A stretch of DNA of 59,802 nt, the filler included, from Basidiobolus ranarum (lineage: Eukaryota): the NCBI GenBank assembly GCA_040143965.1. It is 8 parts of 8 records of this genome, joined end to end, with 100 filler letters (N's around TTAATTAATTAA, not from the genome) between each part and the next. Parts side by side here need not be neighbours in the genome. Positions count along the whole stretch, not along the records: positions 44,967 to 52,336 come from JASJQH010001130.1; 7 more parts are not named here. One strand, written 5' to 3'. The translations under genes and the position numbers were made by a program. The notes beneath the pieces are model-generated. The model saw only the letters and a program-made list of their open reading frames with translations, had not been told where the DNA came from and did no database searches. Of the stretch, positions 21,527 to 59,802 are shown piece by piece (within the stretch, counting starts at the first letter, position 1; each line of letters begins with the position of its first letter).

Positions 21527-21714
21527 CGGACGGTGTGGAAATAGCCAAGTATATGCATATCAGGTGGTGTAGACTTTATTCAGCTAATACTCTAATCTAA
21601 ATAAAGTGACAATCGAGACATCAATCTTTTAAGATATTATGACAAAACTCGATCATATTCATACTTAACTTGATGACCAATGTAATCAAGTTCTGAGAAT
21701 GTAAATATAGTGTT

Positions 21715-22038: not shown

Positions 22039-22412
22039 GTGTTAAAGGGCAAACATGGTATGCTGAAAGGAAGATATTCAGTATTTACCAAATGGACAAA
22101 AGGACAAAAACCTGGAATAATGGGAATCAAGAAAGGTGTCTTGGAAGCAAGGTGTTGCTTCCAAAGGTCTAGCTGAAGGTCTATAGCAAAAATTTAGACT
22201 GTTTTGTTTCATGCAGTTGTAAAGCTAATTCAGAAATAAGAGGGTCATCTTGCATCAGTTTCCAGCATGATAGCAGATTTAAAGATGGTATGGCTAGCAA
22301 CTTAGGGGGGGAGACAGTCACCAAAAGGTGAAATCTTTATTTCAAACAAAACAAAGAAGCCATAACTACTTTTGTAGTTTCTTAACTAATGTATGGAGAT
22401 CAGGAGTATTTG

Positions 22413-22512
22413 NNNNNNNNNNNNNNNNNNNNNNNNNNNNNNNNNNNNNNNNNNNNTTAATTAATTAANNNNNNNNNNNNNNNNNNNNNNNNNNNNNNNN
22501 NNNNNNNNNNNN
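22413..22512. other. Artificial contig-joining spacer
   Basis: N44-TTAATTAATTAA-N44. Confidence 0.98.
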
Positions 22513-23280
22513 AACAAGATACTTATTTCTTTACTGTAATGCAGCTATTACTTGGAATTCAAAGAAACAACCCACTGTAGCACTTTCAACAACACAAGCA
22601 GAATACATGGCTGCCTATGAAGTAATAAAAGAAGCAATATAGTTAAGAAAACTTGTAACATATTTAGGTTATTCTCAATATTTACCAATGACAATATTTC
22701 AAGATAATCAAAGTTGTATTAAATTAGCAAAAAATCCCATGTTTCACAATAGAAGCAAACATATACACACTAAGCTTCACTTCATTAGAGAGACTATAGA
22801 GAATAAGTTTATTGACATAACTTATTGTTCTACAGAAGACATGATTGCTGATATAGTAACCAAACCATTAGCTAGATGGAAATTTGAGAAATTTTGACCT
22901 TTGTTAGGATTAGTTCATATAACTATTTAGTTGAGGGAGAGTGTTGATATTAGCATTGCCTAAACACCTATATAGTGATATATAGCTTAGTACTTAGTTA
23001 TCTTATATTTCACTAGGATATTATCCATTATTCTCAATTGGAATTTACTTAGAATATTAACACCAACTTAGAAGTTCTCACATACATAGATTTTTCAAAG
23101 AAGCCCCAAACTTTGTACACATGTTCATGGGACCTTCCTTGACACATTCTACACGTTAGTTTGTTTACATCTAGACAAAACTGTAAATGTCAACTTTCTA
23201 CCCAATAAATCACTAAGTGAAAACTACAAATTCCTCTAATTCTCCAAACCACCTCCAACAGGCTCCCAAATACTTTAACA
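22513..23280 (+). mobile_element. 3' end of a Ty1/copia retrotransposon: decayed RNase H, polypurine tract and 3' LTR (22942-23280)
   Basis: KKQPTVALSTTQAEYMA...IFQDNQSCIKLAKNPMFHNRSKHIHTKLHFIRE...TEDMIADIVTKPL with stops. The PPT GAGGGAGAG lies immediately before TGTTG...TTAACA. Confidence 0.92.
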
Positions 23281-24522
23281 ATTATTTACTTCTGATCATG
23301 ACTTCCCAGACTCTTGGACTAGAGGTATCTTGCATGTTATGATTTAGATAGCAATGGTTAGTCCTGAAGCTTCACACTAAAATAGACTTTCCTGCACGGC
23401 GACCTAAGATTATGTACCAGGCAGATTCACTGGATTATTAATTACCGGGATTTGATTTTGTATTGTAGCGTATCCTTTGAATATGTCTTAACGGTATTGA
23501 GAAATGCCAGGTTTTTAAACTTACTAAGCATCTCTTTCATTTGTTTGTAAAGTAGTAATAGACTTTATGGTTAAATCACTTATTCTCCAATATATACATA
23601 GATCATGCGTAACTAATACATGCATTCTGATTATCCTATGTAGCTACAAAAGGTGATTAGTCTACAGTTTTTACTTGAATTTTAATGTTTTCTACACTCG
23701 CCAGGAATATGCTGGTATAGTATAATAAGGAAAACAGGAACCTAAGCTGTATAGGTGATTGCTAATATACAAACTAGAATTTATGCCAATATTTCGATTG
23801 AATGATTTAGAGAACTAGGAAAATTAGCTTTTATACAAATATATAAGGCGCACCACATGGCCTAATCATGCTGAAGCAATCATTGGATGGCAAGATGGAA
23901 TAGTCAGATCAACTAATTGGAATTTTACCTATTGCGATCTGAGCGAGGAGAACATCAGGATCGGTATATATATATATATAAGAGCTTATTATAAGTAGAT
24001 GTGCATGATTCACTCCACACCATGAAGTGAACGAAGTAACCAACAATAAGATTAGAGAGCCACTGATATAATCTTAGAGCCACATAATATAATCAAAGAC
24101 AAATATGCAGTAACTACATTGCTTTCTTTGTTGATGTTAATGTGAGGAACAATTTGATGTTAACCCGGAAACAATTAGATGTTATCCTGGAAACAATCAA
24201 ATACGATGCGCCCAAAGTTATGTTTATATTAACACCAACTTCTTTTTTGGTCAGCTGAACAACCGTTGTAACCGAATTTACCCTACCTGTTTCAGTAGAT
24301 GGATTCCCATTTTAGTGCCTTTATATTGCTAAGTAGTCGTGAGTTCCAGTTCTTTCCGTGGCACTTTTGCCTTGACTTGTTCGCTTCATAAGTTTTGGAG
24401 TTTTCTCTCCAACTATATTGATACCCACATATACCCCCCATTACATTGTTAGCTTCTTGAGCACTTCCTTTCTCAAGGCCATTGAACCTCATTTTCCCTC
24501 CTCAGTCACGTTTAAGCACATC

Positions 24523-28769: not shown

Positions 28770-29606
28770 CTGAAGTTGTACAGAACTTGGTGTATATTTG
28801 TTACATTTGTTGATAGAAATTGGTCCGGTTCAAGTGGTCTTTCATGGTTATTTTCCATTCCGATCTTTCCCGCTCCCTAATTGTCTGAACCCTTAATTTT
28901 ACCATACTGTAACATATTAATTCTTCTATTAAAATTTCAAGGTTCTAATTTAGTATTAGTGACCCAATTTTGGACATATTAAGGAACTCAATGTCGCTAT
29001 TTTACCTCAATTTTCTATGAGTACCCAGATACTCCCCCAGATACTCCCCCAGATACCCAATCGCTTCTTGATGGATTGTCAGTCTTTCTTAGCACTCAAT
29101 TTATCTATTCTTTGATACATTAGTTATTCACGTGATTGGCAAGCCTTTATCACCATCATTCATGGACTTACAGGGACGAACATTCCCTTTCTACCATGTA
29201 AGTATATATCATTATGTACTCCATTCCGATATTTCCAACTCACATGCTTCTTCTATTTTGAGCATTTCGCAAATATATTTGATAAAGTGCCTTGTACCAC
29301 CAAAAGTGGAGTTTAGAATTGATGGAATATCTCAATATCTTGCCTCGTAAACATGTGCTACTACTACTGAGCAACTTTGTTGATGGATATAGGCTTGTGC
29401 TAAAATATATGCTACACTACTTCACAAATGATATATGGATTCGCTGACTGAGTTAAAATATGTTAACATACTATATAGAAAGATAACTAAACTGTAACTT
29501 CCTCAATATCATTAGTAAAACCACTTAGACATAAAGTTGACATCAAGTCCTAATTGGTTTCTCCCCATATCTAATAACTGACTTTAACTATATATGAAAT
29601 AATAGG

Positions 29607-29907
29607 TGTTGAAGTTAGCATTGCCTAAACACCTATATAGTCATATATAACTTAGTAGTTAGTTGTCTTATAATTCACTAAGATATTATCAATCATTCAC
29701 AATTGGAACTTACTTAGAATATTTTTACCAACTTAGTTCTCAGATATGTAGATTTTTCAAACTTGTGCTAGAAGCCCCAAACTTTGCACAAATGTTCCTG
29801 GGACTTTCTTTAACACAATCTACATGTTAGTTTGTTTACATCTAGACAAAACAATAAATGTCAACTTTGTACTCAATAAATTAATAAGTGAAGACCACCA
29901 ATTCCTC
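29607..29907 (+). mobile_element. Copia-family LTR copy, truncated by the contig end
   Basis: TGTTGAAGTTAGCATTGCCTAAACACCTATATAG... is homologous to 22942-23280. Confidence 0.85.
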
Positions 29908-30007
29908 NNNNNNNNNNNNNNNNNNNNNNNNNNNNNNNNNNNNNNNNNNNNTTAATTAATTAANNNNNNNNNNNNNNNNNNNNNNNNNNNNNNNNNNNNN
30001 NNNNNNN
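29908..30007. other. Artificial contig-joining spacer
   Basis: N44-TTAATTAATTAA-N44. Confidence 0.98.
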
Positions 30008-32070: not shown

Positions 32071-32460
32071 TGTTGAAATAAGCATAGTCTAAGAACCTAT
32101 ATAGTCATATACCATTTGGTTCTTCACTAGTCCTTATTTCTCTAAAACTTCACTCACTATTCTCATTTGTAACTCACTTAGAAGTACTAAGATACTAGCC
32201 ATTACTCTCAATTGGAACTTACTTAAAATATTGACCAACTTAAAAGTTCTCAGGTATATAGATTTTTCACACTTGTGCTAGAAACCCCAAACTTTGTACA
32301 CATGCTCCTGGGACCTTCCTTAACATATTACAAATGTTTATTTGCTTATATCTTGACAAAACAATTTATGTCAACTAGCAACTCAATAAATCAAAAAGTA
32401 AAATCACCACTTCTTTTAGTTCCTCGAACCGCTTCCAACAAACTCCCAAACACTTTGACC
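32071..32460 (+). mobile_element. Older solo LTR of the same copia family
   Basis: Homologous to 22942-23280. The flanks CTTAC and ATTAC resemble a 5-bp TSD with one mismatch. Confidence 0.75.
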
Positions 32461-35400
32461 ATTACCATTAGTTCTCATACCTTGGATATAATTCTGGTGG
32501 TACTGCCAGTTTTAAAAGTACTTACTAAGAGATTGGGAATAGTATAAGTTGTGGTATATATTCTTAGACATGTAATAACTCAAATTTTGTACTTTCATCT
32601 ATGAATCTTCTTATCCCAAATTGAGGATTACCTCTGACCTTCTGATTAGGAGATAGTAAGACACATGTAGCTCATGCTTTGCCTCATATAATAATATCAT
32701 AATATATGAATACAACTGAAATTTCTATTCTGATATATATGGACCTTAGTTATTGTGCTAAGCAGCATTAGAAAATTAGGAAAATATAATTGTCAGGAAC
32801 TATACATACAGTACAGTTTCCAATAACAGTCATAAAATTTAATTTATTGCTAATATTTTCTAAATAAAAAGTTGGATCTGAAATGTGTACTATTATATTG
32901 TGGTGATTCTCCATATACTCAAAGCTATGAAGAAAATTAGCATATTAATATTGGAGAAATGCCCATTGCTAACTAAATGGAAAGTTATCTGCAAACCTCT
33001 GAAGTACAATCTGGTTAAGTATGAGTACTAAATACTGATGTAAAATATGCATTAGACCTACGAGCCTTACAAGACCCAGTTTACATGGTGCGATAGTACT
33101 GGAGATGAATGTCTCCTGAAATATTGGCTTTTTATCTGATAGGTTTGTGTTGTACTAGATCAGGAACATTATCCCTATCACTTAACTAAGATATACATAT
33201 TAAACAAAATGGGCTATTACTAAACCACCTATATGTTGCATTACCTCATTTAAGGGAAATACGGAATTTGAAGTTGTTTGTATTATGTCCCAAGAGACAT
33301 GCCCTGTATGCTAGGAGAAAGTGTGTCTACCAAATTTTCAACTGATAACTAGTCTATCATATTTCTCAGGAAGAACTCAAAGGATGTTGAGTGCACTCCA
33401 CAGAGCATGTACTGACATAACTCTATTAAATGAGACAGAAGGCCTCAAGAAGTATATTTAGAGTGAAAAATATCTTATACTTGAGTGTAAAATATCTAAT
33501 ACCACTGCTACTATACAAAGGATATTTACTAATGGGTTTGAAGATATTGTACCCATCAATTAATTGTATAAACCTGATTTTGTTAAGTTAAACCAAGATA
33601 TTAAAATGAACAAATCTACAAATCTTGATATCTCATTGATTCTGATTTCTCTCGGCTTCTCACCAACAACAATATGTAGCATACAAACTCCGCCATTGCA
33701 GTTAAGGGTTTACTCCTACTACTCCCTTCTATCCTTTCTTTGGCTTCACCGGTAACCGCATAGTCCTCCCTCTTAAAGATGGTGTCAACCTTCGTGCTGA
33801 TCCAGGAACTACCTATCCCATGGTGGCCTCCTTGAAAGCTGGCTCTTATGTCGATGTTGTATGACAAAAAGCTGATCAATCTGTCAATGTCTATAACATC
33901 AGGGACAAGCCTTTCAGATGAATTTTGACTCTGGGTACGTGGTGGAGGAAAGGTTCTCCCCGGTCTAATTAGAAGACGTAAGGCGGAGCGTGATCTTTTC
34001 TGTTCCGGTATTGCATGCTGAAGAGCAATGTTGTAATTCTCAGTAATAGATAAAAAGAAGGTAAAGCTGAATGAATTAGCATAAGATTTATAATGAGTAG
34101 TCCTTTAATGATTCTTTCATCTACTTTAAATAATAAGAATACAAAAACTAAGTTGCATTTACTGGTCATTGTCGTGTTATTTGAGTGGCATTTCATATAT
34201 AAATAGCGTGCAATAGTTGGTTTTAGTCTGAAAGAGCATCCATCTGTAGAGATTAAATGCGAATTTACCAGTGCTAACATTGACGATATGCTTTTTAATG
34301 TATGATGGCTATACATCTCAATCTAAGAGAAATGAGCACATTGACTACGTGTATTTTATGATAAACAAGCCCATTACATGCATATTAAAAGACATTTGTT
34401 GAACGGCCAATATTGACGCATAACCTCAGAGTGAGAGCTCGTGTATTGTTACAACTAGACATGAATCAGGATTATCGTTTCCTTCTCCGAACAACTTATG
34501 ATAGCAAATAGATTTCTTATCTATGCTTGCTCCTTACAGAACAAAAGCTCAGATTGTTTCAAATAAAGTTAAATCCAGTACATATGTATGTGAACCAATC
34601 GAGGTTTGATCAGACCAGTAAATCATCAAGAATCAGATATTTAGTAAGCGTAGCTGCAAGTTGGGTTATACTAAATTATCCATTCCTCGATGTGTAAGCT
34701 AGTGTGAATGTGTAAGCTAGTGTGAGACACCTTGCTTCATTTGATTTGCTCGTTGTCTGTTTGGGATATGAAGTATGCGGTTACAATTGGGCATAATCTT
34801 TCTTGTACCCATATGGCAATGAAATTTAATCAACCATTAGTCACAGTAGTGATTAGTGGTAGTAGAATTGGTTGGAAGAATTGAAGGAGTTTGCAACAGA
34901 TATCTAAAGTGTGCATATGCAGGAATAGATCATCTGGAGGGAATGCTTACTGCATTGAAGGGCTTTTTTTTATTTTATTGCGGGGTTATATGACCAACTA
35001 CGGGATGAAGGTTGTGTTTTTCTGGTGTATGCAGATTTGGAAACAGCGTACGCCGGCAAGATTGCACTCAGCTATTTTGAAACGTTGGAGCAAACACATT
35101 ATCACTCCAATTTATCGAAACTGTATAAAGAACGATATGATTTATTGAGAGACCAGGGAGCACTTTCTGTATTACAATCATTGCATCTTAATGATAGTAT
35201 CACCATGGAGTTCTATCTGTTCTCAAGTCGATTCTATAGAGATAGTGCTGCTGACCTGGCAGCGATGAGTTTGGTTGGTGAATTGATAGAATCCAGCGAA
35301 ACCCCCTTTGAAATTAAGAAACCCAAGCATGCCATCCATGTGTTGAATCAACCCAACAATGGAATTCAAGGAGGGCATGTGGAGTGCTAATGAGGAGCAA

Positions 35401-37392: not shown

Positions 37393-37492
37393 NNNNNNNN
37401 NNNNNNNNNNNNNNNNNNNNNNNNNNNNNNNNNNNNTTAATTAATTAANNNNNNNNNNNNNNNNNNNNNNNNNNNNNNNNNNNNNNNNNNNN
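37393..37492. other. Artificial contig-joining spacer
   Basis: N44-TTAATTAATTAA-N44. Confidence 0.98.
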
Positions 37493-42430: not shown

Positions 42431-44400
42431 TACTGAAATTAGTATAGTTTAAACACATATGTAGTCATTTATAGCTTAGTACTTAGTTATCCTATATATC
42501 ACTCGCTATTCTCAATTGGAGTTTACTTCAAATACTTCTACCAGCTTAGAAGTTCTCAGCTCATGTTCCTAGGACCACCCTTAACACATTCTACATGTTT
42601 GTTTGTTTACATCTTGACAAAACTATAAATGTCAACTTTTAACTCAAATCAATCAATAAGTGAAAACCACCAATTTCTCCAGTTCCCCAAACCACTTCCA
42701 ACAGGCCCCCAAAATACTTTAATAGGCTATAGGCCCAAGCTTGCACTCTCTGTAATGTCTACTTCTCAAATATCTGGAACTGATTCCTCCTCTGAAAAAT
42801 TGGATGGAATCAATTATCAAGTTTGAATACTTAAAATGAAAATGCTGTTGCAAGAACAACAACTTTAGAATACTATTGCAGGAGAAGAAAAAAACACAAA
42901 ATTTCTGAACCCAAAGTTTTACTCTAGGTTAAGAAAGAAGTAAGTGCCATCAATATACCTTTCATAATGTCAAGGACAAAGTGTTAATTCAGGGTTGTTG
43001 AGCCATAGCTGCTATGAAGGTATGGGGAGCCTTAGAAGACCCCTACCAAACAAATTCTGCTGCCCACAAGTTATTTCTAATAAGACAATTATTTAACTTG
43101 AGACTGAAGCCAGGAGAGGACTCAGAATCTCAGCTTAATAGAGACACTACTAAAGTGGATGAAATAGAATGCATTGGAGTACCTACTACTGAGCAAGATA
43201 TCATTGGGATCAAAGTATTCTGAACCATAGTTAACATTACTCTTTTGCAATATGAGTGTTTCTAAAAAAGCACCTATCATGCTGTTCCAAGCTCTTGGAG
43301 ATTGTTTTAATCCATATAGTGCTGTCATCATTTAATAAAGCTGGTTTAACATCCATTGGTTTTGTAACAAACTATTATTTAGACATGTTTGTTAAAATCA
43401 ATCCAATTAAGGTAAACTTTTCTATTGGAGAAAAAGTTTCCATAAGCTCTAATCCTGGTGCCTAGATATAGCCTTTGGCTACTAGTCTAGCCTTCTACCT
43501 TTCTTTAATGCTATCAGAGTTGTATTTAACTTTGAACACCCATCAGCAGCCAATCAATTTTCTATCATCTGGTGAGTTCATTAAAATCCATGTTTGATAA
43601 TTAATGAGTGCCTGGTATCCATCAGCCAATGAAGATCTCTGAAATTTTGTATGAGGGCCATTAAGGGCCTCTTTAATGGTCTGGGGTACATGTTATATAA
43701 AATGCATATGAAAAATATTCACCAAAGATGTCCTCAGATGATGACTTGATCCAATCATTCAAATCAAACAAAACCAAAACAATGAAAATAGTAGCATTTA
43801 TATGGACCCTTCAATTAAACTTATGGCTATTGAAGTGTCCAATACAATGTCAGAAGTTATAGTATCTTTATCTCAAACCAGGAAAGCAAATTGGATCCAT
43901 ATACATGAGTCTTTAAATTGGGCATTTGCTCAAGTAAATGATCCCCAACCTGTAAGAAAAGCCACAAATGGTCCTCACAAAAAATTCTGGAGATCTGCAA
44001 TAACTGATCAGTGCCATGCTGCAATAGTTATTCATGTTTATATTTAATGTAAACATGAATAACTACCTAATGATAGAAAATCAATTGGCTGCCAATGGGT
44101 GGTTAAAGTTAAGCTCAGATCTGATGGTAATAAAGAAAGATGTAAGGATATGCCTGTTGGCAAAGGCTATTCCCCTACATATGAAAAGGATTATACAGAA
44201 ACTTCTGCGCTTGTAACAAAGCTTAATTCAAGTTGAATGATTTTAGCAATTTTGGCTAAGTAAAAGTATAATATATTGAAATTGGCATTGTCTAAATACC
44301 TATATAGTCATATTTGGCTTGGTATTATGCTATCTTGTATTTCACTAAGGTGTCACCTGTTATTTTCACTTGGAATTTACTTGGATTTAAGTAGTGATTA
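42431..44400 (+). mobile_element. Rearranged Ty1/copia relics: 5' LTR (about 42431-42724), PBS, gag (+), inverted RT fragment (about 43222-43690, -), RT start (+) and a partial LTR (about 44275-44400)
   Basis: The LTR homolog is followed by GGCTATAGGCCC (decayed GGTTATG(A/G)GCCC-type PBS) and gag EKLDGINYQV*..MKMLL. The minus strand gives KARLVAKGY and ALYGLKQSPRAWN. Many stops. Confidence 0.85.
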
Positions 44401-44866: not shown

Positions 44867-44966
44867 NNNNNNNNNNNNNNNNNNNNNNNNNNNNNNNNNN
44901 NNNNNNNNNNTTAATTAATTAANNNNNNNNNNNNNNNNNNNNNNNNNNNNNNNNNNNNNNNNNNNN
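44867..44966. other. Artificial contig-joining spacer
   Basis: N44-TTAATTAATTAA-N44. Confidence 0.98.
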
Positions 44967-45366
44967 GATGCCATTCAAGTACGCTGTGTTTATTTTCGTT
45001 ACTTCATACGAGGCTATTTGATGTGCATACTTTAAGTTAATTGGCACATATAAACTTTGTTGAAAGTATAAGTCTCGATGGTTATTGATAAGCTCTCGGT
45101 AGGTTCTTGACTTTGACGATTCTGTCTGTTTATTTGGTTTGTAATTCTGGAGAAGTGATAAGAAGACTTCTCTGTAAAAATCAACGTTGGAAAAATTTTC
45201 CCGGGCAAAGGCAGGGTCATTTTCCAATTCTTGAATAGGTGAACGTGTGCGTTACAAGGATATGGACGTTAGCCACGAGTGATTTGAGAAGCGGAACGTA
45301 CCGTGGCTTCCACCCAATACCAGTGATTGAGCTTTTGGCTGCTATAATCTTTAGAGGTGGTTCCAT
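44967..45366 (-). mobile_element. N-terminal part of a Fanzor1-like (TnpB-derived) protein, frameshifted near 45235 and cut by the contig start
   Basis: MEPPLKIIAAKSSITGIGWKPRYVPLLKSLVANVHILVTHTFT, then a frameshift, then IQELENDPAF...DFYREVFLSLL...YRELINNHRDLYFQQSLYVPINLKYAHQIASYEVTKINTAYLNGI. This resembles the WED/REC N-terminus of fungal Fanzor1 proteins as I recall them. The RuvC domain is not in the window. Confidence 0.7.
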
Positions 45367-45609
45367 AAAGAGAAGAAAAAGAGAAACAGCAAATTGACCT
45401 CTTTTTTAGTTAACAGATAGAAAATTTGTCTACAATTATTTTGTTCATTTATCTCAGTCATCTTATTACGTTTGCTTAGGTAGTTTTGGTGGACTTAGGC
45501 ACAAGAATGAATGCCAACATGAGAGTATGATGGGCATATAATTAATGATCATAAATGACGATGTTCTGTCCATATGCATATGATTAACAAACAAAAGTGC
45601 CCACTGCTC

Positions 45610-45650
45610 AATAATCTTTGGAGGTGGTTCCATAAAGAAAAGGGAGAGAA
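45610..45650 (-). repeat. Second, short copy of the Fanzor-like translation start
   Basis: ATAATCTTTGGAGGTGGTTCCATAAAGA (45610-45637) versus ATAATCTTTAGAGGTGGTTCCATAAAGA (45343-45370), followed by similar purine-rich tracts. Confidence 0.85.
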
Positions 45651-45887
45651 AAATGTATTACAACTTTTTCTTAAATACATCACTGCTATTGTCTTTTAGC
45701 AGATTATTTTTATTTAATGATGCCAACAATAATGTCTGAAAAAGAACCGGTTTGTCTCAAAAATAAGAGCAAATCATCTCGTTTTTTGTGTTGTACACGT
45801 CCCAGAAGAAAAGGTGAATCGTGTAATTTTAATTTTCAGATCATCTCAATTGGATTTCCAATCGTCTCATTTTAGAGTAAAACACTG

Positions 45888-46143
45888 TATTAAAACTAAT
45901 AAGCAAAAGAGGATGTTTTTACTATCTCGCTGACGAGTGCCTTCTGAGAATCATTACCAAATGGGATCAGCCTTGGGTCATTATCCTTCCGCTCCAGTTA
46001 TTACAGATCGCTCATAATCTGAATGAGCCTTTATAAAAGAGTGTGTCCTCGTTGGAAACCGAGATATACTTCGTCAACGCTTTTCAACAATGAGGCTGCT
46101 CACATTTATTTTGAGTTTAATACTGATATTCCAAGTAGTGGCC
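45888..46143 (+). repeat. About 256-bp direct repeat, copy A (copy B at 52080-52336)
   Basis: TATTAAAACTAATAAGCAAAAGAGG...CCAAGTAGTGGCC is present twice, with about 10 differences counted by eye. Confidence 0.95.
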
Positions 46144-46955
46144 TAGATATCAAGATACCACCTTATACCAATCAAAAATCCACTCCATACTAGTTGGAAT
46201 CTGGTGTCTATGTCTATTATTAGTCAACAGAACAGTAGCTGACGATACTCCCACTGGTTAGAACTTTCCATTCGAATCACTCGTTTCTGTGCATACCCAA
46301 GTTTAGTGAATGCTGGTGGCTTGTACTTGGTCTTGCTTGTGCAACTCTACCTACAAGTACTTGCATGGACCTGTCTATTGTAGACATCCAGAACTAATAT
46401 GGCTATACATTCATCATCGATTCTCTCACTATTGGCGCCAAATGAATATTTCCCATATCCGAACATCGAATATCTACATCTTAGGCTGCAATTGCGCTGA
46501 CCTTCCACCATGTGAATACCTGATCCACAAGGCACTACTGGAGAGATAACTCGGAAGTAACCCATGAATATATACACTTATGTTTTATTTTGCACCAAAA
46601 ACAAAATAAGCTCCCATTCAGAGCAAACAACTGAAGAGTGGAGAATAGTACAAGAAAACTAGATTCATGAGGATAGGAGTATATCGGCACTTTCAAAAGT
46701 AAAACTAGGCAAATATGAAAGTGATTGGTACCGCAATTGCCGAAAGATACCGAGATAATGGTTCTAACTTTGCTTTGTGTGATGTTAAATGTAGGATTGT
46801 GGTGGGCGTTAAGGTTAAAAGGTTGTGTGGAGTAGAAATATGAACAGTCTATGTGTTTAGTAAGCAGATAGAGTAATGCAACGACAAGTATAGCGCTTTA
46901 CAAGGAGGACTAGGAAATATTATAAATGCACCCATATTAAAGCAAACGATGTGAT

Positions 46956-48218
46956 TCATGATGTGGTGGCGGTCAATGAAATATTGCGAGAAGATGCTGG
47001 ATTCGTCTGAGATTGAGACCCGGAGCTATTGCTGTTAGTATCAGAGATATTTCGCTCCACACACCAGTGACGATGACCATCCGCCCAAGCTTTAGATTGA
47101 CATACTTTAGAGCAATATTTCGCCTTGCGGCATCTACGGCACTTGGAGAACTCTCTAGGAAATCTTTCCCACTTGCCACAAGTCATGTTTCCGCATTGTC
47201 TAATACCTCCTCGGGCTTCATCTTTTCGACAAGCATTGCGCATAATAATAGAAGCCCAACATTGAATTTCGGAACTGTGACCTCTACTGGTAAATTTCTC
47301 CACTAGACTGAAAACATTACATTCGAACTCGGTGTGTAAGCGTTGACGAAGATGGGGATACTTTGAAACGTATGCAAGTAGTTGTAAGGAAAGAAGAATA
47401 TCTTCCTCACGATATAAAACTTCCTCGGCGACACTATGAGTAGCAGAAACAACTTGTAGGCCAGGCTGACCATCGGATTCAGCTCGAGACAGAGCGGCCA
47501 TTTGATATAGTTGAGCAGTAGGAGTAGAAGGTTGAGAATCTTCGGATAATGTTTCAAAATCCATTGTTACGTTGGAAGAGCGTCCAAAAACGGGTTGTAT
47601 TCCGGAAGAACTATTGTTCAAGGAATTTTGAAGCTGCTGATTAGCAAGAGTACGACGCAAAGAAGGCAGATTTCTTTGAAATAGATGGCTTGCGTTAATA
47701 GATTCTTCATTACTTGGATCTTGGTTTAACTCGAGCGATAATGGAGTTTGACTGCTCGAACTAAGAAACGGATTTTCACTTGAAACTTGATCTACGCTTA
47801 TTTCCTGCGTTTCTTTTTCTTTCTCTAGTTTTACTTGGTCAACAGCTCTTTGGAAGCTTTTTAATATTTGAATAACAATATCGACCATTCCGGCGTCAAC
47901 AACTCTAGTACGGATAGCTTCAGTGCCACGGACACCTACATTTACTACACACTGAAAAGCCATAGACCATTTCCAGGCCTGTCGCTTATCATCCAGCTTC
48001 GTTGTTTTTAGAATACGAATTAGGCGTTCGAGACCACCATCCTTGGTTATTATTTCTCTGATACGAGGAGAGGTGCTTGTTAAATAGATTAAATGCGAAA
48101 GTGAATTGATGAGGGGAAGAATAGCAGTACAGTCCAGTGCTCTGCGATCATAAAGAGCAGATGTGATGGTGACGCATGCACGGTTCTGTGTAGGAAAGGA
48201 AAAGTTAGATTCTCTCAT
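46956..48218 (-). CDS. MUB1: MYND-type zinc finger protein samB/Mub1
   Basis: MRESNFSFP.QNRACVTITSALYDRRALDCT, LIYLTSTSPRIRE, AFQCVVNVGVRG and MRNACRKDE.RGGIRQC, with the MYND finger CGKWE...FSKCRRCRKAKYCSKVCQSKAW..GHRHWC. The likely ATG is 48218. Confidence 0.93.
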   Translation of the reverse strand: MRESNFSFPTQNRACVTITSALYDRRALDCTAILPLINSLSHLIYLTSTSPRIREIITKDGGLERLIRILKTTKLDDKRQAWKWSMAFQCVVNVGVRGTEAIRTRVVDAGMVDIVIQILKSFQRAVDQVKLEKEKETQEISVDQVSSENPFLSSSSQTPLSLELNQDPSNEESINASHLFQRNLPSLRRTLANQQLQNSLNNSSSGIQPVFGRSSNVTMDFETLSEDSQPSTPTAQLYQMAALSRAESDGQPGLQVVSATHSVAEEVLYREEDILLSLQLLAYVSKYPHLRQRLHTEFECNVFSLVEKFTSRGHSSEIQCWASIIMRNACRKDEARGGIRQCGNMTCGKWERFPREFSKCRRCRKAKYCSKVCQSKAWADGHRHWCVERNISDTNSNSSGSQSQTNPASSRNISLTATTS

Positions 48219-51200
48219 ATTAAAAAGGAACAAGGGAAAATTGAGGCTCAAGAGAAGGAAATCAAAGGTTACAAAATAAAAGAATGGCCACAAGAAATAG
48301 AATTGAGTACTTGTTGGTTATGAAGGAAAGTGGAATGGTTTTAAAAGAAAGACGAATCAAGAATATGGTAAGTAAAAGCGGTAAATCAATTGTGTTGTGG
48401 GTGTCACATCACCCCTATATATAAAGTGTACCGCAGTCGCACAATCTCAAAACTCAGAAACATTAGCGAATAACTATAGTCTAACAATGTATTGATTTAG
48501 AATTGATTAGTCAGATATATTAAGGCATATATAAAGGTGGAGTTAACTAGTTCTTTATTTGATACTTAGCACAAGGCATACATGGAATCTCCGCCAATCA
48601 GCGAGCAATAAAAGATCTCATATCTGAGTGAATTGGGGCTATGTTCTTAATCGAAAACACGGTTCTCATCAGTTGTTCGATTCCCCCATTTACACCTTAA
48701 TAACCGAAGTCACAGGAGAATTTGGCATTTCGATTATAATGCGTAATTGAGTCTTATTTGTGGAGGTTTAGGGCCATTTAGCTGCAATAATCCACGGAGT
48801 GTTTGACATATGCAATATAAACTATTCCAAACCTGTGTAGCCATAATTGGCATTTCGATAATGAGGGAATATAGTAAAATGGTATTACCAAATTGGCAGT
48901 CGAGTCATTGGAAAACGAAAAAGGAACTCCACTGAGATGAGATAACTATTTTGGAGATGAATTAACGAAGTGGACCCATTCGGTAAATAAGGAAACAGGT
49001 GCAGCTTGTTCGGAGAAAAGCACAATATACGGGATATAACGCAGCATCATTTGACCGGCTCGTTTTTAATTTAAAGTGAATATACTTTCCCACCATTTAT
49101 CACTATGTGGTGACGTTGGATTCCCATGATAGTGACTTGCCTACGGGTGTTGCAGCGCATCTTGGCTACTGTGGCAGAGGGAAGTGCCCGTGCATATTTG
49201 ACTACATACATTGCCTGAATGTTTCTTATCATTTGTATTTGTATAGCAAAGGTGTCGATCGCAGTACAAATATGGTGGAGAAATGGATAGGTCATTTCGA
49301 CTCACTGAGGTTGCAAAACTAGCTGTCCAACCTGATTGTACAGTTTATTTTACTACACTTCTAATGACCCACTGATCCAGCCAACACTGGTCGCCAGTTT
49401 TGCAGAGGCAGGTGGGACTGTTGACTTTTCACGTGGTTTGCGCCAAGCTAGTTTCTCGACATCTGCCCACAGTTTGTTTAATAGAGGGGGCTACAGCCCA
49501 TTCCAACCCTAGTTCTGGAGGAGATGAGATTCAGTACATGACTATTGCCCATGGGAAATCTTACTAACGAGACACCAACTTTGGATTCAGAAAGCCCTCC
49601 TATGGGTATTCCAATCATATGTCTCTATACTGAAGTGTAATGTTGGAAGGTACTTGCCAAGCTATATTCGTATGGATTTAGATAAATATAGGGGACTGTT
49701 TTCCCAACACCTCCGTTGCATTGTATTATGTGAAACATCACTAACATGCTTAACTCATCATAGGACTTAATCTAGGATCAACTGAAGCAAACCTTAAAAC
49801 ATATCCTGGGCTGATCTGACGAATCAGTGTAGGCAGTCTTCAAAGCTAGAATTCGCACTTTACATATAGGCGGAGAACCCCACCAGGGATGGATTCTTAG
49901 GTTCCAAAGCCATACAACAAGATAGAACCCTCATACATTCCCCCAGTTCATTGATTCATTAATGCCATATCCGTGTTAACAGTGGCGTAGGAGCAAGATC
50001 CAAGTTTGCATATTATTACTTTGACTCGGGGCTTGTATGGATCAAGATCTTCGCTTAGAAAGATTATTTCACATGTGGGAATCAGTCTAGTAACGATGCA
50101 ATCCACTCTTCATAAGCATTCTAGTGTAGGAAATCAAATGACACCATTCTTCTACCTTATCTGGCAGTATTCCCAAAAAGCAAGGATATCCAAGAATGAA
50201 CAGATGCCAGCTTCTTCACTACCATTAGCAGATTCTGATGGCCTGGGAAGATACAAATTACACTTCCCCTAGAAACATTTGTATCGAGAAGATCGCAAAA
50301 TGAGGGATTAGTACATATTATTGGTTTGGGAATCGCTGTGCAAGTATAGCACTGTTGAACACCTCAACGTTTTTAATAAACTACTTATTGGTGAGATGAA
50401 CTATTTTGGGCATTCCCAACCAATATCACGTGATTGGCGCAAGAAACCATATATGAGAATCAGGGTGTTGCGGTGTATCTCGTACATAAGCCTCAGCACC
50501 GTCAACTAATACTAAATGTGGTAACACCAAAATAGCACTATCGATGTTGCTTTCTGCCCAATAAATGTAATGATATGAGATGGTAAAGATCTATAATAAT
50601 AGTCACGAGTTGATTTCCATCACTAAATTGTACAACTGTGTAGATGGAAGGGACACAAGAATGGGAACCAAAAGTACTAGGCGAGAGGAACTCCGTACCC
50701 TTGCTAAGCTTGGCGATTTCCCCCAAGGCTATATGTATACAAGGTTATGCTTTCCGGGTATTGAGGATAGGTGATCTGCAAAACGGTAGGTATATAGAGT
50801 TCGAATATGCTTTTTCTCAGCTTGGAAGGTTAAACAAAACCTTCATTGTGCTTACTACACTACGACAGGCAACTAAATTCTCGATCTAAACGCAGCTGAC
50901 TCATCATTACTATTCAGAGTCGCAGCAGTACTGAAATTGAAAGCCAAACCACAAGGTACAGAAGGTGCCCGAAGCTGTTAATTCGCAATAGACGGTAGAG
51001 ATTCTGTATGTAGTACAATGGGACTTGTTAACATCCAGTCGATCATATGACTTTTCCATACCCATGTGTATTTGGAATCAAAAAGCTTATCCAGCCATCT
51101 TAAAAGCACGATTTTACTTGCTCACTGCCTTAACAACTCGGTAGACTCTCATTGGTGACTTGATAAAAGTATATGCCGTGCTACTAACAGAGTTACACAT

Positions 51201-52079
51201 AGTGAAGCTCCAAAAACCCGAGTTAAGCTCAGGCTTGGTATCTATATCCAACTCACTACTGTATATTCTAGACTAATACCGTAGCACATCCAATCTACCA
51301 CGTATTGGACAAATACACCAGGCAGTTGTATATATTATACATACAGTTGATGTGATATGTCCATTCTACAGCTGCGGTGATAAATGGAATGAAGTCAAAG
51401 CCATAAAGCAATCGTACAAACCATCCAAATAATCTATAAATATTATTTTCCTAGTATCCAAGCACACTCACTACACCAGATCTCCATTCATGGCATGCTG
51501 ATGGCTAGTTTTGGTTTACAGTCTTTGAGACCTGGATCGATTACAATTGGAAATCTCCGTTTTAATATGTGCAATCTTTGCTTGGTAGTGCTCTCCTTCA
51601 TGATATGTTATTCAAGGATAGAGCAGTGCACGCTGCTTCTAAGTATGCCCTTCGATCAGCAGATGTGATGTCAAGATAGATATTGTATTTGATTGTTGTG
51701 ACTCTAACAACAGCAACTTCGATGCTTGCCTTCAAACTGGAGTTTTGGAGGTGAACCATCCATAGGTGGCTTAGCTCTTTTCATCAATCATGGATCGGTT
51801 TCAGTGCTCAAGTTTTGTATACGCCATAGATGAGGCGTTCGATGGCATTGGCTTCGGCTTGCACCTATTTCTAAGAAAGCCGCATTAATATTTCAAGTTT
51901 GATGGCCAAAAATCACATACTGGTAGTCCTTGAGACAACCAGTACTTCGCAAGCTTGAATGGGTTCCAGAGTCAAGTTCTGATCGAATATCCGAATTTCA
52001 ATGATACTTACGTACATGATTATATGGCATTACGACCATACGCATTCGGCGTCTCAGGTAAAACAAGAATAACTCTGAA

Positions 52080-52336
52080 TATTAAAACTAATAAGCAAAA
52101 GAGGATGTTTTTATTATCTCGCTGACGACTGCCTTCTGAGAATCATTACCAAATGGGATCAGCCTTGGGTCATTATCCTTCCGCTCCGGTGTTATTACAG
52201 ATCACTCATAATCTGAATGGGCCTTTATAAAAGAGTGTGTCCTTGTTGGAAACTGAGATATACTTCTCAACGCTTTTCAACAATGAGGCTGCTCACATTT
52301 ATTTTGAGTTTAATACTGATAGTCCAAGTAGTGGCC
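52080..52336 (+). repeat. About 256-bp direct repeat, copy B, running into the contig end
   Basis: See copy A at 45888-46143. Confidence 0.95.
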
Positions 52337-52436
52337 NNNNNNNNNNNNNNNNNNNNNNNNNNNNNNNNNNNNNNNNNNNNTTAATTAATTAANNNNNNNN
52401 NNNNNNNNNNNNNNNNNNNNNNNNNNNNNNNNNNNN
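52337..52436. other. Artificial contig-joining spacer
   Basis: N44-TTAATTAATTAA-N44. Confidence 0.98.
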
Positions 52437-53399: not shown

Positions 53400-56300
53400 T
53401 TAATAACTCAAATTGTGCTTGAGCCAAAGGTTTGGTTAAGATGTTGGCAATGATTCTTGCAGCAGGGCAATAAACAAGTTCAACTATATCATTCTCTATT
53501 GCTTCTCTAACACAATGATGCCTAAAATCTATATGTTTTGTTCTAGCATGTAATGTAGGGTTTTTAGGTCAGGAAACACAACTTTGATTAACATCAAATA
53601 CAGAAATAATACACCTTTGCATGTATCCTAAGTCTGTAAATAACTTCCTTAAACACACAGCTTCTTGTGCAGTAGTAGAGGCAGCCTTATACTCTGCATT
53701 TATAGTGGAAGGTGTTATGGTTGGTTGTTTCCTAGTTATCAAAGCTATGGCTCCATTACCATAGACACTAGTGTACCCAGTTGTTGATCTTATATCATTT
53801 ATGCTTCTGCCCCAGTCTGCATCACCATAGACTTCAAAGTTTTGTGCATCAAGAGCTTATGGGTATTCCAGAACTAGAGTTAGCATACCTGGCAAATACA
53901 AAAATATTTGGTTCAGCGCACTTTTGTGTTCAGATCCTTGATTTCTAAGCTATTGGCTGGCAGTTCCAACTGACACAGCAATACCTGGACTTGTTCCAAC
54001 CACTGTATACTTTCAACTACCCACTGTGAATTAAAAAAGGAACTCCTGGCTCAGATTTGAGTCATTTTTGGCCAAGTTGGATGATATTTTGATTACTTCC
54101 ACATTGGGATCCAACGCCATTGCTAGAGGCTTGCTATTCTACATGTTGAAGTATTTTGAATCTCTAGGATGTATTTAGACTGACTCAGCATGATTTTGTG
54201 ACTGGGTGTATCTCTCTTGACTTGAAGAACAAGAAAATAAGTTAATTCACCTGCATCTGTCATATGAAAATTGGCTTCAAAAGCTGTTTTTTGTCTGATT
54301 AAGTGCTTCTAGATCAGATGATCATGTCATTCACATAAAGTGGCAAGATAAGAGTCTTATTTCTGGCTGTTTAGATGTAAATACTTTGTTCTTCTATGCA
54401 TTATTGGAATCCTAGTAATTTAAAATAGGTATCTCTCTTGTTGTACCATGCCCTGGGTATTGGCTTGAGTCCATGCAGCATTTTTGCAGTTTACACATGA
54501 TATCAGGGTATATTGGGTTAACAAATCCTATTGGTTGCTCCATAAAGTCCCCTTCTTCTAGCTTTCTGTTAAGAAAGGCTGTTTTTACATACATTTGATG
54601 TATATCAAAGTTATGGATGGCTGAGAGTGCTAGCGTTGATATAATGGAGCAAAACTTAGCTACTGGAGCTAAAGTTTGATCAAAATCAACTCCTGTAGTC
54701 TGGGAACAATCTTTTGTGAACAATCTTGCTTAGTACCCTTCTATGGTTCCATCAGCTTGGTTTCCAACATTGCGAACCCATTTGCATCCTATTGGCTTTC
54801 TTCTAGATGATAGAGTACTACAAACCTACATTCCATTGTCCTGAGGTGAAGAAAACTTAGTAGACATTGCTTTTTCCCATATCTTTGATTCTGGACACTG
54901 CAAAGCTTGATCTAGAGTTTGTAGCTTGTTGCAGAATGCTGCTTAGGCATATGCATCAGCTTTGGAAGTGTTCCACCAGTTTGCTGGATGACTTTTCATT
55001 CTGGATGATCTTTCAAGCTCTGAATCATCCTCTGAGGTAATTTGGGCAGGGAATTTTGTGGAATTGGGTTCAGATATAGTTTGAACTTTGACAGACACTT
55101 CCTGCATAGTGCTGATGGTATTCTGTGGAACAAAAACTGTGCTTTGAGGTGAAAGATTTGCTTTATCATTAAAAATCACATCACTGCACTTAGGTAACTT
55201 CTGATCTTTGGTATCAAACAGTCTGTAGGCCTTTGATCCATCATAGAAACTAAGAAATATGCAGTCTCACTTTTGGGTCCAAGAGTGCTTGTGAGCTGGA
55301 ATTAGGCAATATGCTGTGCAACCAAAGATAATGAGATGATCCACATTAGGTGTATATTCATATAGGGAGTCAAAGGGGCAGAATTTTGTAGCTATTTTGT
55401 TAGGCTTCTGCATTGGACAAAATCCAGCAAAGTCTTTCCAGCAGTATTCTACTAAATTATCACTCCTGTGTATGCTAATTTTTTGAGCTGCTTCTTTCTT
55501 TACTATTGCCTTGTAGTGCTTGTATGTAGCTAAGGCTTCAGATCTTGGTTTGAGAAAGAATATCCTTTTGGCCATCAATAATTATCAAAACATACCTTTT
55601 GCCACCTAGTGAGAGATCTTTCACAGTCCTCACATGTCAGAATGAATCAGTGCAAAATTCAGATTGGATTTAACTTTTCCAGAGCTTGAAAATGGCTGTC
55701 TGTGATGTTTTCCACTTATGCAACCTTCCCGCAGATCCAATTTGGCGTTATTTTCAAACTCTAAGCCTCAAACAAGCTGATTTTAATTTGTTTGGGTCAG
55801 TTCTTGCTGCCCAATTTGACCTGATCTTTGCTTCCATATCTGACAGCCTCCTTTAGCAGTTTTGGCCAAGTTGGCATGCTCAGAATGCCATTTGTAGAAT
55901 CCTATCTTGTATAGATTTTGAGTTGTGATACCAGTAGCTAATATTATAATGTTGTGACCTGTGATAGTGCTTCCAGCATTGCTGAACACAAATTTTAGTC
56001 CTTGAGTTTTTGCTTGGCTTATTGAGAGTAGATTCTTGGCTATATTAGGTACATAGAGTATGCCGTCTGATTTTGCAGATAGCAGAGTACATTGTCTAAT
56101 TTTGCAGATAGCATAGCTAGATCTGGTCTAAATTAAGTGCAGCTGTGCCCTACCAATTGCATCTAGTTCATAGTCATCATCTCCAAAGACTCTCCTTGTT
56201 TGGATGCTTTTTAAGCTGGAAAACCAAGCTTTCTTGCTTAATTTATGCTGGGAAGACATATGAATATTTGTGAGTCTTAGTTGATGGTTACTTTTAGGGA

Positions 56301-57180
56301 AGACACAAAAAGATAGTTCCCATCAGTGCTTACTTGATTTGCTTGTTCCAATTTTAGCTTTTTGGCAAATAATCTTTTTGTAAAATCATTGATAAAATTG
56401 CCTGCTTCTTGCAATAATTACGGATAATTGATTTCCTATTTGGGGCACTATTGTTGAAGTCTGTTATATGTTTTGCAACTACAAAGAATGCCTGATCTGC
56501 ATTATTTTGTTGAGAATTAGTTCCCCTTAATTACATATTCACAAGCCTAGCATCTACATATTCCTTAGTTGCTGGCTCCATTCTTGACTCTTAGGCAATT
56601 ATGAGGTACCCAAACTCATCTGGCAGGCCCCCAACTAGTGTCATGATCAATTTATCTTTATTTAGAGGTGCTTCAATGGATGAAAGCTGATCTGCCATAG
56701 TTCTTATCCAATTCATTTGATTAAGCATAAAATCATCAGAATTCATCTGAGTTTAGATTATTTTCACCCAAGATATAGCTTGTTAGCCATACTCTTAGTC
56801 TTATTAAGTCTATTAAATTTTTTCCAAGCAGTTTGGGAGTTTTTGGCTGAGTGTATGTGCCTCAATTGAGATTGTCTAAAATATAGACAAAGTGTAGAAA
56901 GTGTTTTCCACTGGTTCCTGTTAAAGGCAAGGATAGCTTCTGGTGGTCCCTTGTGTCTAAAATATAGACAAAGTGTAGAAAGTGTTTTCCACTGGTTCCT
57001 GTTAAAGGCAAGGATAGCTTCTGGTGGTCCCTTTGGCTCTATTGCATCTCCTGCAGCAAATCCCCACAGGTCTGTGTTTTCATGCACCATTTGGAAGTGT
57101 GTCTTCATCCTGATATAGATTTATGTATTATACACCTGACTTTTACCAATTGGTATATGTCCTATTTGTACTTTCTGTCA
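53400..57180 (-). mobile_element. Nearly complete but heavily decayed Ty1/copia gag-pol (gag, protease, integrase, RT, RNase H)
   Basis: LYVPNIAKNLLS, integrase HRSDN and FGCTAY, RT GVDFDQTLAPVAK and HQMYVKTAFLN, RNase H DADWG and TKHIDFRHH. Many stops and frameshifts. Confidence 0.92.
56873..57033. repeat. 81-bp-period tandem duplication inside copia gag (27 codons)
   Basis: TGTCTAAAATATAGACAAAG...CTGGTGGTCCCTT starts at 56873 and 56954, and the copies look identical. Confidence 0.95.
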
Positions 57181-57332
57181 ATTAAGACTATGGGATGTGC
57201 TTGGATCTTAAATAGCATGCCTACAAAGCATGGGTGACAATTTGCGGTGATTGGGATAAGTTTTGATAAGATACTGAAAATTGGTTAAAGTGATCTGATT
57301 ACCATTTATATTATTTAGATCAATAAACACAC

Positions 57333-59802
57333 ATGTGAAGGGAAGAATTGAGTCAATAGTCCTATTTAATAGTAAACTGTACAGAGGACATCCAAATCTT
57401 GTCCAAAACACTTCCAAATCCACTAAACACTTTTATCAGATTATGAGCCCCAAGCTAGCTGCTAAAGGTATGTCTAGCAGTATTATTAGCAAGGTTTTTG
57501 CATCAACAAAGAAGCTTAGTGGGGAGACTTAGATTTTTGGAAGTTGAAGATGCAAATGGTTCTAGAAGAGAAAAACCTGTGGGGATTTGTTGCAGGAGGA
57601 GAAAGAGGCCGATGGGACCACCAGAAACTATCCTTGCCTTTCACAAGACGCTAAGGAAAGCACTCTCCACAATATGTCTTCATCTCGGAGAATCTTAATT
57701 CAGGCACATGTTAGCCAAAAACATCCAAAATGCTTGGGAAACACTTGAGAGACTATATGAGACTAAAGGTTTGGCTAATAGGCTATATCTTGGGCAAAAT
57801 TACTATCAATTAAAATGAATACTGATGATTTTATTTGTAATTATATAAATTATACAGAAACTATGGCATATCAGCTCTCATCCATTGGAGCACCTCTAAA
57901 TGAAGATGACTCAGTCAGGACACTACTGTGAGCCTGCCAGACAAGTTTGGGAACCTCATAATTGTGCTGGAATCAAGATCCAAGCCATTAACAATGGAAT
58001 ATGTTGAAGCTCAACTTTTGAATGAGGAATTAAAGAGATCAAATTCTCAGCAAAATAATTCAAAACAGGCATTTTTTGGAGCTGTAAAACATCCAACAGC
58101 CTTCAATAATGGTTCCCCTAATAGGAAATCAATCATCTGCAAGTATTGCAAGAAACCAGGCCTTTTAATTGAAGATTGCAGAAAAAGGATTTTGCCAAAA
58201 AGTTACTATTGGAACATGCAAATGAAGTAAGCACTGATAGGAATGATCATTTTGTGTCTGCCCTATCAGTTACAACAAAGAAGACTCAGAAATGTGATAC
58301 ACTGGTTGAGGGGCTTTGCAGCATATGTCAAACCAGAAAGATTGGCATTCTAGCTTGAAAGCAATGCTAACAAGGAAAGTCTACTTAGATGATGACTATG
58401 CACTATATGCAGTTGGTAAGGGCACAGTTGTGCTCAATTTAGACCAAAATTCAGCTACATCATTTGCAAAATTAGATGATGTACTCTATGTACCAATTAT
58501 AGCCAAGAATCTACTCTCCACAAGCCAGGCAGCAACTCAAGGACTACAGATGTTGTTCAGCAAGACTGGATGCACTGACACAAGTTAGAATAATACCAAA
58601 TAGGCTACTTGGATCAAAACTTAATACCTATACAAGTTAGAAACCAACAAATTGCATTCTGAGCAGGCAAACTTGGCCAAAACTGGTGAAGTAAACTGTC
58701 AAACACAGCATATAAAATTGGGCCACATTGGGGAACAAAAACTGACCCAAATTAACTAAAATCAGCTTGTTTCAGGCTTGGAAATTGAAAATATCATTTA
58801 ATCAGATCTGTGTGAAGGTTGCATATATGGAAAACAGTACAGATGCCACTTTCAAGCTCTGGAGAGATCAAATCCACTCAAAATTTTGCCCTGGTTTATT
58901 TTCACCTCTGTGGGCCCATGAAAAATGCCGCACTAGGTGTGAAAAGGTACTTTATGACCTTTATTGTAGACAAAACAAGATATACTTGGGTATTTTTTCT
59001 CAAATCACAATCTGAAGCCTTAACTATGTTCAGGTATCAGAAAGCAATGATTGAGAAAGAATTAGCACAAAAAAAAGGCTAATAAGGAGTGATAATGGTG
59101 GAGAATACTGCTTTAAAGATTTTACTAGTTTTGGTTCTAACCATGGACTTAAGCAACAAGCTACAGTACCTTATACTTGACAGCTAAATGGAGTTGCAGA
59201 ATGTGCTGATAGGACCATGGTAGAGATGGGAAGATCAATGTTACGTGATCAAAAGTTAGATTACCAATATTAGGCTTAATCAGTCTCTACTTCAGTATGT
59301 ATCAAAAGCAATTACTTGCAAGGTTGCTGCATTTGAAGCCTCATACAGATCAAAACCAAGTGTGGATCATTCAAAGATCTTTGGTTGGATTGCTTATTGC
59401 CTAATTCCAGCTCAAAAACACTCTAAATTGGGGCCCAAAAGCAGAAAATGCAAATTTCTTAGTCACTGTGATAGATCTAAGGCCTACAGACTGTTTGATA
59501 CCAAATATCAGGAGTTAAATAAGGCCAGTGATGTGGTTTTTGATGAAAAAACATATTTTTCAACTCACATCACAGTTCATGATCCAGATAAAATGATCAG
59601 CACTATTCAGGAAGTGTATATCAAGATTCCAGTAGTATCTGAGCCCTATTCACATCAAAATTCCTGTCCTGAATACATCAGAGAATGATTCAGGACCCAG
59701 AAGGAGAAATAAGCCAAGGAACTGATGGAACACCTCCAATGATGATGTATATGCTTACGCAGCATTCTGTGATAAGCCACAGACAATCAACCAAGCTCTG
59801 GA
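57333..59802 (+). mobile_element. Second decayed Ty1/copia copy of the same family: LTR end (...TTTTATCA at 57438), PBS, gag, protease, integrase
   Basis: PBS-like GATTATGAGCCC at 57439-57450, then LPDKFGNLI, CKYCKKPG, VLYVPIIAKNLLS, IRSDNGGEY and KLGPKSRKC..KAYRLFD...DVVFDE. Confidence 0.92.

Follow-up and report, generated by a model that had tools for sequence, protein, structure and literature searches.

The outermost 400 nt of a 7370-base contig very likely hold the 5' end of a Fanzor1 gene that is broken by a frameshift and cut off by the end of the contig, with 133 codons distributed over two minus-strand reading frames (43 + 90). Fanzor1 proteins are eukaryotic, transposon-borne relatives of TnpB and Cas12, and their RNA-guided mechanism has been established for SpuFz1, GtFz1 and PpFz1. 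According to the structural account in Xu et al. 2024 (PMC11423790), an intact Fanzor1 is guided to TAM-adjacent DNA by an omegaRNA that is transcribed at the element's 3' end, the REC and WED domains clamping the TAM duplex and the RuvC and TNB domains forming the nuclease lobe, responsible for omegaRNA binding and DNA cleavage. A survey published in 2013 (Bao and Jurka, PMC3627910) described Fanzor1 and gives four families for Rhizopus oryzae, ten for Mucor circinelloides and three for Phycomyces, and reports of RNA-guided nuclease activity and structures include those of Saito et al. 2023 (PMC10432273) and Xu et al. 2024. As Fanzor1 has been known in Rhizopus, Mucor and Phycomyces since 2013, the copy described here would be a new, damaged member of a known family.

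Results

Structure of the locus

The window, that is, the whole stretch of 59,802 nt analysed here, is made up of eight whole contigs of 7408, 7408, 7396, 7395, 7385, 7374, 7370 and 7366 bases, arranged in descending order of size and joined by artificial spacers (N44 + TTAATTAATTAA + N44) at 7409-7508, 14917-15016, 22413-22512, 29908-30007, 37393-37492, 44867-44966 and 52337-52436, so that features are not to be read across the joints. Position 44967 is the true end of the contig 44967-52336, and since 44966/44967 is a contig joint, nothing to the left of 44967 belongs to the Fanzor1 locus. The features of this contig end are as follows.

45238..45366, minus strand: putative Fanzor1 piece 1, 43 codons, encoding the first beta-strand of WED (KIIAAKSS) and the beginning of REC helix 1 (from translation)
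45237..45237, minus strand: break point, where one base separates the two frames, with a net loss of 17 nt and of the conserved F-x-K-Y-I-F stretch
45217..45219, minus strand: TGA stop closing the first frame, six codons past the break
44967..45236, minus strand: putative Fanzor1 piece 2, 90 codons, REC-domain helices (from translation, phmmer and AlphaFold2/Foldseek)
44867..44966, no strand: artificial, non-genomic joint between two contigs (N44 + TTAATTAATTAA + N44)

The minus-strand ATG at 45366-45364 opens 43 codons, MEPPLKIIAAKSSITGIGWKPRYVPLLKSLVANVHILVTHTFT, corresponding to the start codon plus 42 further codons (MEPPLK...HTFT). Continued past the break, this first frame reads YSRIGK and then ends at the TGA, and the next frame, from 45236 to 44967 on the same strand, reads IQELENDPAF...TAYLNGI over 90 stop-free codons and is still open where the contig ends. 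Both peptides quoted in a preliminary description of this DNA agree letter for letter with our translations; the frameshift, which it had placed near 45235, was located as a frame change at base 45237, and the contig edge to which it had the second frame run proved to be real. The assembly breaks off 400 nt into the gene, which is why the remainder is missing, and the part encoding RuvC and TNB, together with any omegaRNA, would lie beyond the contig end at 44967.

Similarity to Fanzor1 in sequence and fold

A phmmer search of the PDB with the 90 residues of piece 2 (P0001) retrieved the Fanzor1 of Parasitella parasitica, present there as an MBP fusion (PpFz1, chain 9cf0_P; PDB 9CF0-9CF3; Xu et al. 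2024, PMC11423790) with an E-value of 5.4e-16 over 88 aligned residues (chain 559-646, 44% identity), the next match reaching only E 0.36, so that the Fanzor1-like identity put forward in the preliminary description is borne out by sequence homology to a characterised Fanzor1. The Rhizopus microsporus protein P0003, which spans both pieces, matched 9cf0 with E 3.8e-36. Piece 1 alone gave a weak match (E 0.12), again with 9cf0 as the best hit, at chain 512-554, collinear with and just upstream of the region matched by piece 2, and in alignment A1 its residues K11, W19, L27, V31 and H40 are nearly invariant. If PpFz1 residue numbers are taken as chain position minus 410 (our own count from supplement file 4 of Saito et al. 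2023), the fragment corresponds to PpFz1 residues of about 102-236, with piece 1 at residues 102-144, and the WED strand and the REC helices come in the same order in both proteins. The motif block given for fungal Fanzor1 proteins in the preliminary description agrees roughly with the consensus of the alignment, YRxLIxxHRxxY...YxPxxLxYAQQIAxYExxKIxTAYLNN.

The AlphaFold2 model of piece 2, built from a 65-row alignment, contains four helices and has a pLDDT of 86.8. In a Foldseek comparison of this model with the PDB, which covers the REC helices of piece 2, the six best matches were all Fanzor1 chains, and the seventh fell to a probability of 0.07. The match to PpFz1 had a TM of 0.89 and an rmsd of 1.8 A, and that to SpuFz1 from Spizellomyces punctatus (PDB 8GKH; Saito et al. 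2023, PMC10432273), the structure with which a comparison had been proposed, had a best TM of 0.69 and an rmsd of 2.7 A, with probabilities of 0.63-0.98 over four chains (0.95-0.98 for 9cey, 9cez and 8gkh; 0.63 for 9ceu). PpFz1-like sequences were part of the alignment given to AlphaFold2, so that the agreement in fold cannot be counted as entirely separate from that in sequence. The resemblance to SpuFz1 is one of REC fold, whereas at the sequence level no match to the fragment was detected at E <= 10 or 1, and the identity in the structural alignment was 14%.

Pfam searches with both pieces found no family above the cut-off (best E 0.055), and spurious fold matches are frequent for short helical peptides, as would be expected if the two ORFs were chance frames or belonged to an unrelated helical protein with a superficial likeness to Fanzor1. 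Such a reading is so improbable as to be negligible, and is refuted by the PDB match over 88 aligned residues, by a two-piece tblastn in which 10 of 13 homologues give collinear matches (see below) and by Foldseek, where only Fanzor1 chains rise above the noise; 62 genuine homologues also speak against it. Since the window shows no RuvC, no zinc finger, no omegaRNA and no transposon end, the putative nuclease identity of the fragment is taken from its homologues only.

Homologues and their nuclease domains

The sole match of a word-indexed search (38 candidates) was P0003 (R. microsporus RMATCC62417_09524, 173 aa), with P0188 (see below) the closest relative found, which is 70% identical to the window copy over the 90 residues of piece 2 and shares its M-x-P-P-L-K-I-I start. 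In tblastn, P0003 matched 45366-45235 in frame -1 (64%) and 45236-44967 in frame -2 (70%), with a joint E of 2.75e-47, and unlike the window copy it reads through the break site in one frame; as both pieces are thus covered by a single frame of P0003, they are not chance ORFs. When 13 homologues were compared with the window by tblastn, 10 matched both pieces, in frames -1 and -2, and the remaining three (P0024, P0039 and P0050) begin downstream of the break and matched frame -2 only. The same search covered the whole window, and none of the seven remaining contigs gave a Fanzor match at E <= 0.01.

An exhaustive HMMER search with piece 2 against 1.84 billion representatives yielded 63 proteins with E-values of 1e-3 or lower, of which 16 reached 1e-10 or lower. 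One of these, P0008 (2624 aa; E 4.6e-17 through 16 weak stretches), turned out to be the translation of a tandem repeat, with a high content of K, I, L and R, and was dropped. The 62 homologues left are mostly fragments, with nine reaching 550 aa and a median of 213 aa for the full set of 63. Among the long ones is P0024 (732 aa), whose alignment with PpFz1 begins in the REC domain and extends to the C-terminus (E 5.6e-197) and which also matches SpuFz1 by sequence (E 1.7e-36), so that SpuFz1 is reached through a full-length relative. P0188 (R. microsporus RHIMIDRAFT_306090, 497 aa), the nearest long relative of the window copy, to which it is 71% identical over 35 overlapping residues, matches PpFz1 with E 9.4e-114 and contains the motifs IDPGWRD (RuvC-I) and LLDECKASS (RuvC-II) and a CP..C...CHGLL finger. 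Both P0003 and P0188 are unannotated Fanzor1 gene models, recorded as hypothetical proteins.

Strict patterns applied to 11 longer relatives detected RuvC-I in nine, RuvC-II in five and RuvC-III (NRD) in two, all three motifs being present in P0024 and P0042, and found CHGLL, the second half of the TNB zinc finger, in six; a number of the models, many in all, break off at the finger. The catalytic triad of a Fanzor1 RuvC domain is D-E-D or D-E-N, and the full TNB finger reads CxxC ... CHGLL. The preliminary description had made its assignment depend on a C-terminal RuvC domain in the homologues, and RuvC is indeed carried by P0024, with all three motifs, and by P0188, with RuvC-I and RuvC-II. 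Pfam searches with 14 homologues returned only weak matches of two of them to a Cas12f1-like TNB (19.8 and 16.9 bits, below the Pfam cut-off of 26.3) and spurious matches of P0008, and four further relatives had no Pfam match. A search of the ESM Atlas with P0003 found no Fanzor cluster (best feature score 0.88, structure TM <= 0.37), a null result at the level of leads, and of 137 pattern matches from a metagenome scan with P0001 none was confirmed by tblastn.

PpFz1 is an intact protein that works with an omegaRNA of 75 nt, in contrast to the frameshift and truncation of the window copy, and it carries about 100 extra N-terminal residues (again our own count from the supplement of Saito et al. 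2023). The subfamily of the window copy does not have this long disordered N-terminal region, and the M-[EK]-P-P start is common to the window copy, to P0003 from R. microsporus and to P0006. A separate difference concerns P0188, in which roughly 100 residues of 9cf0 (chain 989-1091), the stretch that holds the cyclophilin-binding FRI insertion of PpFz1, are absent. According to Xu et al. 2024 (PMC11423790), FRI occurs in Parasitella and Rhizopus only. As P0188 is without this stretch, not all Rhizopus Fanzor1 subfamilies would appear to have FRI, unless the P0188 gene model skips an exon.

The frame break

In alignment A1, all ten homologues that span the break have seven residues, typically x-F-x-K-Y-I-F, between H-x-[FY] and [ILVF]-x-E-L, whereas the window copy has one codon (ACC) and one base at the same site, which amounts to a net shortfall of 17 nt. 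The claim that a small deletion had disabled the gene is thus supported in this form, and the loss may reflect one event or several. A net loss of this size would take six conserved residues out of the first REC helix and would also shift the frame, so that translation from the ATG would stop after 49 codons. The uninterrupted reading frame of a functional Fanzor1 is therefore absent here, given the frame change at 45237 and the stop at 45219-45217. A short intron restoring the frame was considered and rejected, as the window has fewer bases than the homologues at this site, not more, and the only GT..AG pair near the break would excise 26 nt and lead into the third frame.

The same shortfall could have arisen as an assembly or consensus error, in which case the gene would be intact in the organism and a live Fanzor1 would be cut only by the contig end. 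Both pieces are stop-free over 43 and 90 codons, the CpG of the fragment is not depleted (see below), the assembly is fragmented into contigs of about 7.4 kb, and collapsed repeat copies can yield a mosaic consensus close to contig ends. We nevertheless regard an error as unlikely: the missing stretch is a conserved motif found in ten of ten homologues, a loss of 17 nt is unlike the usual homopolymer errors of assemblies, which involve one or two bases, and most of the relatives in the databases are themselves fragments (median and length counts given above), which fits a family rich in broken copies. We infer that the break is real and that the window copy is most likely a dead relic, in which decay has been slight, since the 90 codons past the break hold no stop.

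Neighbourhood of the fragment

Two further features of the same contig bear on the fragment.

46956..48293, minus strand: host gene encoding a MYND zinc-finger protein (Mub1/samB-like; Pfam zf-MYND 31.6 bits, cut-off 22.7)
45604..45653, minus strand: partial second copy of the Fanzor1 5' end, consisting of a leader portion rich in pyrimidines (about 20 nt) followed by ATGGAACCACC..AAAGATTAT

The MYND gene, 1.6 kb from the Fanzor1 fragment, serves as the taxonomic marker of the contig. Its product matches best proteins of Basidiobolus ranarum (83%) and B. meristosporus (82% and 78%), and is 54% identical to a Rhizophagus protein and 55% identical to one of Rhizopus microsporus. The partial second copy lies 267 nt upstream of the Fanzor1 ATG and covers the leader together with the initial 23 nt of the reading frame; it was recovered by the repeat search as family D4 (43 nt at 86%) and by blastn (50 nt at 84%), and it opens an unrelated ORF of 55 codons (MEPPPKII...) that diverges after eight residues. 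It could be a remnant of the 5' end of another copy or a local duplication.

A direct repeat of at least 256 nt is present at 45888-46143 and 52080-52336 (96% identity, 6.19 kb apart, CpG observed/expected 0.82), the second copy running into the contig end and the pair flanking the MYND gene region. These repeats were rejected as LTRs of a Fanzor element, as they flank an ordinary host gene, and the similarity ends at 45888/52080, on the side that faces the Fanzor gene. The contig contains only the 5' flank of the Fanzor1 gene, and neither the 43-50 nt copy nor the 256-nt repeat defines an end of the element. At either end, then, the contig stops within or beside sequence that is repeated or belongs to a transposon, which fits, but does not prove, that the assembler broke at 44967 because the Fanzor element is present in multiple copies in the genome. 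No tRNA genes and no Rfam families were found on the contig 44967-52336.

Other contigs of the window

The other contigs encode common fungal proteins, among them a chitin synthase, an acetyl-CoA synthetase, an RGS protein, a cytochrome P450 and TTI1, and contain pieces of decayed copia-like retroelements. Individual features are as follows.

20309-21559, minus strand: three adjacent same-strand ORFs, two of which match the cytochrome P450 profile at 222-322 and 322-428
56767-57120, minus strand, last contig: gag domain of a copia-like element
59260-59685, plus strand, last contig: retroviral SH3-like domain of a copia-like element
21714-22038, 22941-23284, 29599-29907, 32177-32464, 42434-42722 and 44268-44385: copies of a dispersed repeat of about 300 nt

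The P450 gene is split by short introns or frame breaks. The last contig (52437-59802), in particular 54901-59800, contains two diverged (73-75%) copia-like copies in inverted orientation, together with a perfect 80-nt tandem duplication at 56873-57033; over its 7366 nt it has 16 CpG (observed/expected 0.06) and a TpG/CpA ratio of 1.35. The dispersed repeats form a family with 71-86% identity that is spread over four contigs; one copy sits at the very end of its contig and others lie a few hundred bases from an end, and the family is probably the cause of the fragmentation of the assembly.

CpG content and age of the copy

The Fanzor1 fragment has 15 CpG in 400 nt, an observed/expected ratio of 0.98 that is close to that of the MYND host gene (0.95), compared with 0.03 in the dispersed repeat at 21714-23284 and 0.06, together with a TpG/CpA excess of 1.25-1.35, in the copia-like region at 54901-59800. 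The retention of CpGs that the preliminary description had pointed out, in contrast to decayed retroelements, is therefore confirmed by the ratios. As the fragment is not depleted of CpG, it is plausible that the copy is recent, or else that it has been spared by whatever erodes the CpG of repeats, and the contrast with the eroded retroelements would fit a recent arrival.

Origin of the copy

A profile search gave 18 matches, 13 of them with named species (Gilbertella, one; R. microsporus, two; R. delemar, four; Spinellus, six), all of them Mucorales. Over the 90 columns of piece 2 the window copy is 70% identical to P0003, 62% to P0004 and 60% to P0186 from Gilbertella, and P0003 itself is 61% identical to P0004 and 58% to P0186 over the same columns; P0004 has stretches that are 94-100% identical to R. 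delemar proteins. In a quick maximum-likelihood tree the window copy is the sister of P0003 (SH-aLRT 92), and both lie within a clade of eight rows with a support of 96. This tree comprises 54 of the 65 rows and 90 columns, with many unresolved forks and an arbitrary root, and leaves out 11 rows with fewer than 70 residues, P0188, P0007 and P0010 among them.

The fragment therefore nests among Rhizopus and Gilbertella sequences, and is closer to them than is the conserved MYND host gene of the same contig, whose product is 83% identical to that of Basidiobolus ranarum and 55% to that of Rhizopus microsporus. P0003 and P0188 accordingly come from a fungal phylum other than the one that the host gene suggests. 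This nesting suggests a horizontal transposon transfer, and with 133 codons to go by we tentatively raise the possibility, somewhat short of an even chance, that a Rhizopus-type Fanzor1 transposon has moved recently between Mucorales and a Basidiobolus-like fungus, which belong to different phyla. Alternatively, the copy could be part of an old Fanzor1 subfamily whose Basidiobolus members are simply unannotated.

The same data could also be read as a chimeric contig, in which a foreign Fanzor1 piece from contaminating Mucorales DNA is fused to Basidiobolus-like sequence: 13 of 13 named relatives are from Mucorales, the fragment groups with the R. microsporus copy although the gene 1.6 kb away is of Basidiobolus type, and it sits at the extreme end of the contig. 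Yet in GC content the fragment (0.398) is like the contig as a whole (mean 0.395), the interval from 45367 to 46955 shows no join, and the best Mucorales protein is only 70% identical, from which it follows that no sequenced Rhizopus is the source. Chimeric joins are, moreover, uncommon in short-contig assemblies, and we consider contamination improbable. The copy points to the presence of a Rhizopus-type Fanzor1 family in a Basidiobolus-like genome.

Discussion

Genome editing has an interest in the Fanzor1 nucleases of eukaryotes, which are compact and cut DNA under the guidance of RNA, and the mapping of their natural distribution is still under way. The ancestral family, according to Xu et al. 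2024 (PMC11423790), is that of bacterial TnpB (IS200/IS605 and IS607) and Cas12, with which Fanzor1 shares the WED-REC-RuvC-TNB arrangement and guide-RNA-directed cleavage; the window fragment itself, in contrast, has no detectable similarity to TnpB. The term Basidiobolus is absent from the searchable supplements of Saito et al. 2023 and Yoon et al. 2023, in which R. microsporus occurs 23 and 277 times, respectively, although PDFs or shortened cells in these supplements may hide a listing, and none of the papers searched names both Fanzor and Basidiobolus.

Being a broken and truncated relic, the window copy says nothing new about mechanism, and its value is that of a pointer. If the transfer is true, intact and possibly active copies of Fanzor1 would be expected in this genome, whose lineage is missing from two published Fanzor catalogues with searchable species lists. 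If confirmed, the finding would be an example of a transposon that crossed between phyla of early-diverging fungi, as well as a source of further natural Fanzor1 variants.
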